From positions 1 through 10,158 of IMG/VR virus record IMGVR_UViG_2671180417_000002: a DNA stretch of 10,158 nt; one strand, 5' to 3'. Below, piece by piece: positions 6,001 through 9,000 of the stretch. Origin of the DNA: a virus (taxonomy: Duplodnaviria; Heunggongvirae; Uroviricota; Caudoviricetes). A program made the position numbers. The stretch's first letter is position 1. Every line of letters starts with the position of its first letter.

Positions 6001-9000
6001 TAGGAATATCCCTTTTCGTACTTTTAGTACGCATTATGGTTGAACTGAAAGTTTTTGCAAGTGCTTTAGTATCGTACTCATGGTTCAGAATGAAAAAGTG
6101 CGCAAAGAATTCGCCCAGCGGCTAGCGCAAGCCTGTAAAGAAGCTGGTCTTGATGAACATGGTAGGGGTATGGCCATAGCCCGTGCCCTTTCTCTTTCGT
6201 CCAAAGGCGTTAGCAAATGGTTTAATGCTGAGTCTTTACCGCGTCAGGAAAAAATGAATGCGCTTGCGAAATTTCTAAACGTTGATGTTGTTTGGCTTCA
6301 GCACGGCACTTCGTTAAATGGAGCGAATGATGAAGATACTCTTTCATTTGTTGGCAAATTAAAAAAAGGGTTAGTGCGCGTGGTTGGTGAGGCAATTCTT
6401 GGTGTTGATGGTGCCATCGAGATGACCGAAGAGCGCGATGGGTGGCTCAAAATTTATAGCGATGATCCAGATGCCTTTGGTCTTCGTGTGAAAGGAGACA
6501 GCATGTGGCCCAGAATAAAATCAGGAGAATATGTACTCATTGAGCCTAACACCAAAGTATTCCCGGGGGATGAGGTGTTTGTCAGAACCGTTGAAGGACA
6601 CAACATGATCAAGATTCTTGGCTATGACAGAGATGGAGAATACCAATTTACAAGCATCAACCAGGACCACAGGCCAATAACGTTACCTTATCATCAAGTA
6701 GCAAAGGTGGAGTATGTGGCTGGTATTCTGAAGCAATCTCGTCATCTGGATGACATCGAGGCAAGGGAGTGGCTGAAAAGTTTGTGACTTCAAGTACGCG
6801 ACAAGCCCCGTCCTTCAGGGCGTGGAGGATGTCAAAATAACTTTAAATAACACACCACCAACATTTAACACATTGAATTAAAAAACCTACAATATTTGAT
6901 GAGAGGCGTTATGGAACCGGTCAAAATTAAACCATCTGTGGATTATATTGAAACCTATGCGGACTTCGCTAGTTTTGCTCCACTACCGGGAGCGGAAAAA
7001 AATCTCATTTGTATACATTTTATCGCAAACAAGTCAATACCTGCGGTACTATCCCAAAATGATATACCAGATCAACCAGGTAGAGCGAATATGCAGATAG
7101 GCTCTGTAAATGAACTCAATCAGCAATGCACTGTGATAATGCCAATGGCACAACTAAAGGCTCTTCAAGAGAATATAGTTCTTCTTTTCGAACAATTAGA
7201 GGCACAAAACTCTAATGGAGCGAAGTCGTAATGCAACAACCGGAAGAAGTAGGTGATTTAACTATTACTTACAAAACATCAAGTATTGTTAAACCACTGC
7301 AAGTTTCCCTGAATAACGTTAATACTCGCGATTTCATGATGTTCATGGAAACAGCAAAAGGTAATCTGTTTTCTACGCCTATTTCCTCTTATTCACCAAA
7401 AAACATGGTGGATGATGCGACCAATTCCCAGCTAACTGCTACAATCGTAGATAAAGGAGGGGTTGCCGATTGTAAAGGACAATCTAATGTTATCCCACCG
7501 TACGAGGAAACTCCTATACAGGGAACCGCAATGTCCGATTTGAGCAGAAACGAAATACAGGCACTTCTGAAGGCAAATAAAGCTGAAGTGGATGCAGTGG
7601 CCTCAAAAATGCAGGCTGATATGGCCAAATGGCGTGAACTAATGGCTTCAGATATAAAGGAGATGAAGCATTTAGTTGTTACTCAGCACGAACAAATCAA
7701 CAGTCGTCTGGACATACAATCGAGTAGAATTGAGAGTGCCCTTGACTCCCAATCAAAAAAGATCGATGCAGCTCTTTCTGTTCAAGAGGCAAAGTTAGAA
7801 GGTAAGCTTAGTGATGTTAAGCTTGATATAATCAAATGGGCCCTTGGCTTGCCAGCATTAGCATTTGCTGTATATAAAATCTACGGATTGCTCTCTGGAG
7901 TCTCAACCCCCTAATACACACCCGGCCTCAGTGCCGGGTTTTCTTTGCCCAACGTTCGCCCACCTAAAAACACATAATCGATTGTATTTATTGAAAAACT
8001 GATAGATACAACTTGCTAAACAGTGCAACCCTGATCCCTGCCCCATCACCTTCATCCTCAACATTTACAAAAATAAAATACCTTATATATCAAAACCATA
8101 TCTCGAGAAAACGAATGAACAACAAAATTTCGTACTTATGGTTCTTGATTATATCGAACCAATAGTTCATTATTATCACCATCAGCAGGACGCTGGAAGC
8201 CAAACGGAACAGACTGGCAGGCTCTTTAAACAACGTCGAACTCTCGACTACGTGGCTGAAAAGCCAGATCACCCAACCACATAAGCTGTGGGATGCAATG
8301 CCGAAGCAACCGTCTCAGGAGGAGCTTCGAGATTGCATCGCCAAAGTTTATTCGGGAGGAATCTATGTCCAGAAAAACAGAATTTAAAGGCACCGCAGCT
8401 TCTCGCCGTAGAGCTCGTCGCGCAAACCTGCAAAGTCAGGAGTCGATTAGCTCCGACAAGCTACACAGGCCAACCCCTTCACGAGTGGTCTTGCAATGCA
8501 AGCGCAAACCAGCAATGAGAGCAGAAGTTATAACTCTGACAACGTTGACCAGAAAATATGAAGGTTCAACTTGTCTTCCAAACGTAGCCATTTACGCTGC
8601 AGGCTACCGTAAATCCAAACAACTGACAGCAAGATGACTTGTGTTGGTCGCCAGAAAATGAAATTAGGCAGCAAACCACTTATTTGAGAGGAATTAATAT
8701 GTCATCAATCCGCTTAACTACGAGAATGAAAGAGGAAATCGCTCGTAACGCTTTAATTAAGTCCGGGGTGTTCACTGAACTTGAAGAAGTAACAAAGTTA
8801 AAGAACCAGCTTGCACTTGACGCCAGAGTTATTGCGTTTGGCGGGAAAAAGAAAACCGAAGAAGTGGACCAGCTGGCATCAAAGTTAATGGCTGCAAGTG
8901 AGGAACTTCAAAAGCTGGGATGTTCATTTTACTCATGCGATGTCAGTTCATGTTCGATTTATCTGACTGTATCTGGAAGAAGGGTTGGCTGGCATTCATA

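Follow-up and report, generated by a model that had tools for sequence, protein, structure and literature searches.

The window analysed here is a stretch of 10,158 nucleotides, positions 1 to 10,158 of the IMG/VR virus record IMGVR_UViG_2671180417_000002 (Caudoviricetes). It holds the immunity and early region of a lambdoid E. coli prophage, in the reverse orientation to the standard lambda map. Between the stop codon of its cI-type repressor gene and the terminator Timm lie two genes, named A and B. They form a mobile two-gene accessory cassette (a moron) that replaces the rexA-rexB genes of lambda. The anatomy and the slot of this cassette are secure, and its function in defence is a best guess. 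We tentatively read A-B as a Rex-like exclusion or abortive-infection (Abi) module expressed in the lysogen, with a sensor partner (A) and a membrane effector (B); as an analysis-based reading, it falls somewhat short of probable. The strongest support for this role is positional and architectural. The open reading frames (ORFs) were already annotated as hypothetical proteins, and a distant pair from phages HK244 and HK542 has been in GenBank since a 2007 study of immunity regions. The definition of the family, the rule of the paired partner, the exact replacement in the rex slot and the link to DUF1640 are new. The coordinates are given in Table 1.

The limits of the cassette come from comparison with related phages. 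On the right side, the DNA from 7920 on aligns to lambda just 3' of rexB. The aligned stretch comprises the Timm hairpin and some 60 bases beyond it. The window terminator also aligns with the annotated Timm of HK244. On the left side, the Stx2a-converting phages have a cI gene 97.9% identical to that of the window, and homology stops at 6792, five bases beyond the cI stop. From 6792 to 7920 these phages and the window are unrelated, and the alignment resumes at 7920. The comparisons with lambda and the Stx2a phages define A-B as a discrete cargo module in the rex slot. Like a moron or mosaic module, it has its own boundaries and unrelated flanks, and it is missing from otherwise identical relatives.

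Two Yersinia enterocolitica prophages share a 99.65% identical block from the repressor stop to about 50 nt beyond B. This block sits between unrelated repressors and unrelated flanks. Sequence comparison therefore supports the view that A and B travel together among prophages whose repressors differ. The stem of Timm is kept behind divergent cassettes in Yersinia, Serratia and one metagenome contig. It probably serves as the terminator and could also act as a recombination linker for the swapping of cargo.

The interval between cI and N is a mosaic hotspot. It holds rexAB and bstA, which are abortive-infection systems coexpressed with the repressor (bioRxiv 10.1101/2020.07.13.199331, citing Degnan 2007). 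BstA of Salmonella BTP1 shares with A-B the interval directly downstream of the prophage repressor. However, it is an unrelated, single cytoplasmic protein. In the Stx2a phages the slot contains other cargo (L051, LC616049.1, 1335-2744). It consists of a DUF3024 protein, which corresponds to the PADLOC candidate PDC-S43 (E = 7e-42), and a 285-aa protein with a NYN domain. These two genes make up a further uncharacterised cargo, with the same junctions as A-B and the same cI allele beside it. Its proteins are unrelated to A and B, and it is a candidate system only.

Genes A and B lie directly 3' of cI on the same (+) strand. The stop codon of A and the start codon of B overlap (TAATG, 7229-7233), which shows the arrangement of translationally coupled genes. 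The sequence GAGAGG (6901-6906) stands five nt before the ATG of A. An alternative start, the TTG at 6896, is possible and gives a longer ORF. Downstream, the terminator hairpin (7920-7939) has a 7-bp stem in which 6 of the pairs are G-C. Since N lies at the far side (Table 1), the cassette is placed between cI and the PL/N region. The original prediction had described the two coupled ORFs, the closing intrinsic terminator before PL and N, and the rex slot. The coordinates and the overlap agree with it, the terminator proved to be homologous to lambda Timm, and both junctions fall where the slot begins and ends. Two minus-strand ORFs within the cassette (7389-7628 and 7903-8064) were without support and were set aside.

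We searched the + strand between cI and A for a terminator-like site and found none. Because no terminator follows cI and the unit ends at Timm, the sequence predicts co-transcription of A-B with cI from PRM/PRE. The cI gene is presumed to be the upstream gene of a shared cI-A-B transcript. The spacer between cI and A presents the top-scoring sigma-70 promoter-like site of a 3-kb region, 18 nt before the ATG of A. When the spacer was shuffled, a site that good arose in about 2% of cases. It is a plausible candidate for a cassette promoter, like lambda pLit. The Yersinia cassette has TTAAAA-18-TATCAT at the equivalent position of its spacer. In the Providencia and HK244 cassettes the site is not conserved, and the spacers have only about 46-50 nt. 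These spacers are too short for a promoter, so a promoter of its own would be optional for the cassette, and read-through would be the common denominator. The suggestion that the spacer may hold its own promoter is thus plausible for the window and Yersinia, but it does not extend to Providencia or HK244. The structure of the spacer RNA was not significant (fold z-score -0.09). Likewise, Rfam and tRNA searches gave no RNA family in the cassette and no tRNAs.

In the cassette, G and C make up 41.3% of the bases, against 45.5% in cI and 46.4% over the window as a whole; the value for the neighbouring PL region is 41.5%. The cassette had been described as AT-rich acquired cargo. It is more AT-rich than cI; however, the difference is modest, and the PL region has nearly the same composition.

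The spacer also presents a stretch of 31 nt (6806-6836) that is 100% identical to one in 44 Stx phage records. In the Stx phages the match belongs to a hypothetical gene (L0135 in 933W) that has a very different genomic location. It may be the scar of a recombination event, or else a small element that the phages share. A near-identity DNA search of 50,697 phage records gave this match only and no copy of the cassette.

Protein B presents a clear domain order. Its AlphaFold2 model, a monomer, has a mean predicted local distance difference test (pLDDT) score of 71 and contains one long helix (aa 102-221), the end of which is the membrane segment. Only one segment is hydrophobic in the Kyte-Doolittle profile; it peaks at aa 196-225, at the very C-terminus. 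We calculated mean identities over 18 full-length relatives and searched for invariant residues in 31 sequences. The N-terminal head is followed by a linker (aa 47-100) that is disordered and unconserved, with 11% mean identity and pLDDT below 50 at aa 48-99. All 12 invariant residues are within aa 108-136, at the start of the stalk. A motif like a beta-layer, h-[ST]-[KR]-x-E-[LI], is found at this start. It consists of DLSRNEI in B and of FTKTEL or ITKTEI in relatives. The other conserved segment is aa 196-227, with 81% mean identity within the type-1 family. It comprises the membrane helix and about six residues beyond it. With no signal peptide and so short an end after the membrane helix, B would be tail-anchored in the inner membrane, with its bulk in the cytoplasm.

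The distal stalk varies in length among the relatives of B. Its hydrophobic periodicity peaks at 3.67, not 3.5. The segment had been called heptad-like; it is better described as four repeats of 11 residues. On the other hand, the single hydrophobic helix at the C-terminus of B and the small, soluble nature of A were predicted correctly. The statement that neither protein belongs to a nameable family holds for A. It does not hold for B, which belongs to phrog_14825 and resembles PF07798.

More precisely, PF07798 (CCDC90-like/DUF1640) matches B over aa 106-214 with 28.1 bits (E = 2.1e-6), which is below the cut-off of 33.5 bits. Among the relatives, 27 of 31 match at E<=1e-3. The best E value is 6.9e-7, and all of them are below the gathering cut-off. 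In DUF1640 proteins, a beta-layer stands at the stalk start, followed by the stalk and a C-terminal membrane helix (Hartmann et al., PMC4786415). The fit of the beta-layer motif and the sub-threshold matches lead us to consider B a divergent DUF1640-like protein. B is labelled 'CCDC90 family protein' in some RefSeq genomes, and NCBI calls several of its relatives 'DUF1640 domain-containing' or 'CCDC90 family'. With MCUR1, CCDC90B and the prokaryotic members of this family, B shares the helical stalk, the single C-terminal membrane helix and the motif of beta-layer type. Nevertheless, its score is sub-threshold, its head is unrelated, and neither its sequence profile nor its model led to a PDB chain. 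When the alignment of the B family was searched as a profile against the PDB, the sole match was to a designed protein, at chance level; Foldseek with the B model against the PDB gave nothing below E = 3. The B family also differs from DUF1640 in being confined to Enterobacterales prophages and in being nearly always accompanied by a small partner gene.

Protein A is acidic (pI 4.75) and predicted to be soluble, and it has no transmembrane segment. It has no match in Pfam, PHROGs, NCBIfam or PADLOC. Only 13 representatives of relatives were found at E<=1e-3 among 1.84 billion protein clusters, so the A family is very small. A tblastn search of A against phage records found nothing. The low-confidence model of A is rich in beta structure, with four strands and a C-terminal amphipathic helix (aa 79-104). 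Two possible homologies of A were tried with hhalign and rejected. They were between its C-terminal hairpin-plus-helix and the B head (probability 3.8%), and between A and HK24405 (probability 0.1%). Pfam, NCBIfam, PHROGs and PADLOC assign no function to A, B, HK24405, HK24404 or the other partner types.

In lambda, rexA-rexB mediate abortive infection or exclusion; PRM/PRE and pLit drive their expression. RexB (144 aa) is polytopic, with four helices in the membrane. The cassette resembles this system in its slot between the cI stop and Timm, in its orientation with cI and in the homologous flank after Timm. It also has two co-oriented genes, for a soluble and then a membrane protein, with predicted repressor co-expression and a possible own or internal promoter. 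However, RexA has 279 aa and A has 106, and B, instead of being polytopic, combines a long helix, predicted to be cytoplasmic, with a lone membrane helix at its C-terminus. Lambda RexA and RexB were compared by BLASTP with A and B, respectively, without any alignment at E<=100, and the Pfam scan found no Rex family. The absence of homology and the different membrane architecture exclude the cassette from the Rex family, in agreement with the original prediction, which saw no resemblance to RexA or RexB.

The nearest known case is in the wild lambda-immunity phages HK244 and HK542. Their rex-slot genes, HK24405-HK24404, were deposited with the immunity-region study of Degnan et al. 2007. They share with A-B the slot, the two-gene layout (with a 4-nt overlap there) and Timm. 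HK24404 shares the stalk start of B (30% identity over aa 81-217; profile hidden Markov model E = 1e-29) and the C-terminal membrane helix. In contrast, HK24404 is without the B-type head, continues beyond its membrane helix for about 35 residues rich in Pro and Gln, and belongs to PHROG 5820 instead of 14825. Its partner HK24405 (144 aa, phrog_5893) has no detectable homology to A. Outside the slot, both phages have an Nmad5 gene after N, with 93% protein identity to that of the window.

We collected 50 related loci, which with the window make 51 sources, from exact-protein look-ups, a scan of species-representative genomes, IMG/VR and phage records. A profile search gave 108 B-like clusters, and those that are named all come from Enterobacterales (Morganellaceae among them). 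The names on these clusters are domain labels (DUF1640, CCDC90, baculovirus PEP C-terminus) and one evidently wrong annotation; none is functional. NCBI names relatives in Klebsiella, Yersinia, Serratia and Providencia. The scan of species representatives gave only 6 loci, so the family is rare among them. Among 5,426 complete E. coli genomes, 40 have the cassette in its exact form. Three of the 43 places in E. coli genomes that match the cassette DNA are on plasmids; these could be phage-plasmids or partial copies.

A and B stay together in E. coli, Klebsiella, Yersinia and metagenomes, in copies whose identity ranges from 100% to about 50%. This conservation indicates that A and B are not chance ORFs. 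In 49 of 50 loci, a co-oriented small ORF ends between -62 and +12 nt from the start of B (the exception is L039). The partners are of the A type (94-127 aa as called), the HK24405 type (142-172 aa) or other types (87-131 aa). These others were unrecognised by the profiles used, and some have CxxC motifs. Among 38 distinct B sequences, the B head is found in 14 of the 15 that have an A-type partner, in 0 of the 8 with an HK24405-type partner and in 0 of the 15 with another partner. This covariation, read from sequence, argues that the partner may work with the N-terminus of B.

The position of the pair is also recurrent. A repressor with S24/HTH (helix-turn-helix) domains lies directly upstream on the same strand in 38 of the 50 loci. 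The remaining loci are in Xenorhabdus, Pantoea, Providencia and Serratia fonticola, several of them in accessory islands among tail genes. In Xenorhabdus (L015, L037, L039-L043) and Pantoea (L018), B-like genes with other partner types are found near the tape-measure gene. By eye, the neighbours of the tail-region loci include Arc-type regulators, antirepressors and toxin-antitoxin genes. In the relatives of the Xenorhabdus/Pantoea clade, the membrane helix is followed by a conserved tail rich in Pro and Gln, in which the motif QPTVIYVQQP occurs; the window B has no such tail.

We considered what these observations might mean for the function of A-B. According to the reading as an exclusion or abortive-infection module, A-B in a lysogen would exclude or abort infection by other phages in the manner of RexA-RexB, with proteins unrelated to Rex. 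Both genes would be expressed with the repressor from PRM/PRE, possibly boosted by the spacer promoter. A would bind the B head and act as a specificity or regulatory subunit. B would be the membrane effector, probably a trimer like other DUF1640 stalks. A cytoplasmic trigger would be relayed to B, which would then compromise the membrane or block a membrane-associated step. We favour this reading because the slot is the rexAB/bstA hotspot and sibling phages hold a defence candidate at the same junctions. In addition, the small partners swap while the B core is kept, and the cassette is also found in moron islands.

Several points weigh against it. The argument of a defence slot is guilt by position, and in other phages the interval holds cargo that is not for defence. 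The covariation of head and partner is confounded by shared ancestry. In PADLOC-DB v2.0.0, A has no match, and B has only HEC-07 (E = 0.009), in the helical region and at chance level. HK24405 and HK24404 are also without PADLOC matches. The AlphaFold2 model of A is poor (pLDDT 52, from an alignment of three sequences). In the literature on HK244/HK542, on DUF1640/CCDC90 with phage, on tail-anchored exclusion proteins and on lambdoid defence hotspots, we found no functional study. Finally, the topology of B, a single helix with cytoplasmic mass, is unlike that of RexB. It is also unlike that of the superinfection-exclusion (Sie) proteins that block injection, which have their bulk on the periplasmic side.

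A wider form of this reading concerns the whole family, and we regard it as possible but doubtful. The B family might be an unrecognised class of tail-anchored DUF1640-like membrane effectors, armed by interchangeable small cytoplasmic sensors. They would act as repressor-linked exclusion or abortive-infection systems across Enterobacterales prophages. The A type, the HK24405 type, the types with CxxC and others would be the sensors.

Four other explanations were weighed. In decreasing weight, they are a host-modifying scaffold, a toxin-antitoxin-like pair, a modulator of the lysogenic switch and a lytic-cycle protein. The first is unlikely, although it is the best of the four. It proposes a module of lysogenic conversion or host physiology with no anti-phage role. 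B would scaffold a host membrane complex or cytoplasmic machinery, with A as an adaptor, and the lysogen would gain stress tolerance, a metabolic benefit or an envelope change. Eukaryotic CCDC90/MCUR1 proteins scaffold inner-membrane complexes, and the CCDC90-like matches of 27 of 31 family members, although sub-threshold, point in the same direction. B has the stalk and C-terminal membrane helix of DUF1640 (PMC4786415). The strong conservation of the stalk start and membrane helix would fit binding to a conserved host partner, and not every repressor-linked moron is a defence gene. However, the pair is repeatedly found in the rex slot, and also in moron islands, where its neighbours by eye are antirepressor-like, Arc-like and toxin-antitoxin-like genes. 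Its small partners are swappable, which is more typical of arms-race selection. No gene of a host pathway accompanies the pair, and the family is confined to prophage contexts in Enterobacterales.

A toxin-antitoxin-like or addiction pair is rather improbable. One of the two proteins, B as a membrane-active toxin or else A, would be neutralised by the other. The prophage would be stabilised, and any anti-phage effect would be secondary. The tight translational coupling, the small acidic protein encoded first, the nearly constant presence of the partner (49/50 loci) and the membrane anchor of the second component agree with such a pair, and toxin-antitoxin genes neighbour some of the loci without a repressor. 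But neither A nor B matched a toxin or antitoxin family or a DNA-binding antitoxin domain in Pfam, NCBIfam or PADLOC, and A is without the DNA-binding motif typical of type II antitoxins. The predicted co-transcription with cI is atypical as well, as is the lack of an evident autoregulated promoter in the short spacers of Providencia and HK244.

It is still less probable that A-B modulates the lysis-lysogeny switch or the induction of its own prophage, for instance by keeping a regulator bound to the membrane. An influence of Rex proteins on the transition from lysogenic to lytic growth has been proposed, and the position in the immunity region and the predicted co-expression with cI would suit such a role. 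Nevertheless, the same cassette is found with unrelated repressors and Cro proteins. It is also found far from any repressor, among tail genes, so it is not tied to one circuit, and prophages with the same cI do without it. Last, a virion, lysis (spanin- or holin-like) or other lytic-cycle function is hardly credible: the coiled, membrane-anchored shape of B superficially recalls i-spanins and some relatives lie between tail genes, but i-spanins have an N-terminal anchor and a periplasmic coil, opposite to the topology of B, the cassette precedes PL, has the orientation of cI and ends at Timm, which predicts its expression while the lytic genes are off, and the pair of the Pantoea locus L018 is on the strand opposite to the flanking tail genes.

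Table 1. Features of the cassette and of its surroundings. Positions refer to the window unless a related locus (L number) is named.
Feature	Position	Strand	Evidence or remark
Gene A, 106 aa	6911-7231	+	ATG start
Gene B, 227 aa	7231-7914	+	phrog_14825, 8.3e-129
B N-terminal head (aa 7-46), beta-hairpin and helix	7249-7368	+	pLDDT 72-90; 34% mean identity
B conserved core, stalk start (aa 101-137, MSDLSRNEIQALLKANKAEVDAVASKMQADMAKWREL)	7531-7641	+	83% mean identity; pLDDT 91-95
B distal stalk (aa 156-199), four tandem 11-residue hendecad repeats, I/L-x3-L-x6	7696-7827	+	read from sequence
B C-terminal transmembrane helix (about aa 200-221, IIKWALGLPALAFAVYKIYGLL)	7828-7893	+	hydropathy peak; model helix to aa 221
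Spacer between cI and A, 123 nt	6788-6910	+	left module junction at about 6792
Sigma-70 promoter-like site, TTAACA-17-TACAAT	6865-6893	+	10/12 matches
Intrinsic terminator, homologous to lambda Timm; right module junction	7920-7946	+	hairpin, then TTTCTTT
Conserved Timm stem, ACCCGGCC/GCCGGGTTTT	window 7920-7946; L003 2532-2557; L004 5703-5725; also L020, L008		
cI-type prophage repressor, 235 aa	6080-6787	+	Pfam HTH_3 PF01381, 1.2e-5; Peptidase_S24 PF00717, 4.8e-16; phrog_4
Operator-like repeat TTTCGTACTTATGGT; OL/PL region marker downstream of the cassette	8128-8142	+	repeat family D5
Antiterminator N, first gene of the PL operon	8365-8637	+	PF25694, 1.6e-31
Antirepressor, Dam methylase, NinB, Ren, P, frameshifted O, CII, Cro-like HTH protein		-	

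The genes around the cassette are those of a lambdoid prophage. From the ren gene to N (3328-8688), the window is 97.6% identical to L001, a near-identical RefSeq prophage region. L001 is a prophage of E. coli PC-NDM34, integrated beside ybhC, and its counterpart of cI is labelled 'LexA family transcriptional regulator'. The operator-like repeat downstream of the cassette repeats the OR palindrome at 6014-6028. It is a context feature outside the cassette, and a repeat search of 5950-8400 recovered this operator-like pair alone. The replication gene O (4385-5303, minus strand) has a frameshift in its iteron region that splits the reading frame. Its N-terminal 135 codons terminate at ...IPQNEG*, and the remainder is in a different frame. 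In L001 the counterpart of O is an intact coding sequence of 900 bp. The split O means either a defective prophage or an assembly error.

Directly 3' of N, the window has the gene of the Nmad5-domain protein (207 aa, 8699-9322, + strand; PF18757, 1.1e-68). Its homologue in HK244 and HK542, HK24401, is at the same position, and L001 carries a ral gene there. Further along, Rfam matches Lambda_thermo, the cIII thermoregulator element, at 9534-9592 (+ strand, 88.5 bits). It marks the start region of cIII in the PL operon. At the other end, a module like the immI of P1/P7 (397-1326, minus strand) lies within the lambdoid prophage. It consists of the Rfam C4 antisense RNA (1128-1212), a1/b1 targets (1274-1326) and isrK (1239-1313), with an antirepressor (397-1074, ORF6N and P22_AR_C domains) downstream of these elements.

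If A-B is an exclusion or abortive-infection system, it would represent a defence family that is missing from PADLOC-DB v2.0.0 (2023) and undescribed in the literature that we found. It would place a design of conserved membrane effector and swappable small partner in the classic rex slot. It would also make clear what takes the place of rexAB in wild lambda-immunity phages such as HK244 and HK542, and offer a tractable handle in E. coli on the function of bacterial DUF1640/CCDC90-like proteins. If the view of modular effectors is true, this would be the first function assigned to prokaryotic relatives of MCUR1/CCDC90. If the role is not defence, A-B is still a widespread membrane protein pair, with predicted expression in the lysogen and present in clinical E. 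coli. The cassette is one of many uncharacterised candidate systems, and it merits attention in plaque assays.

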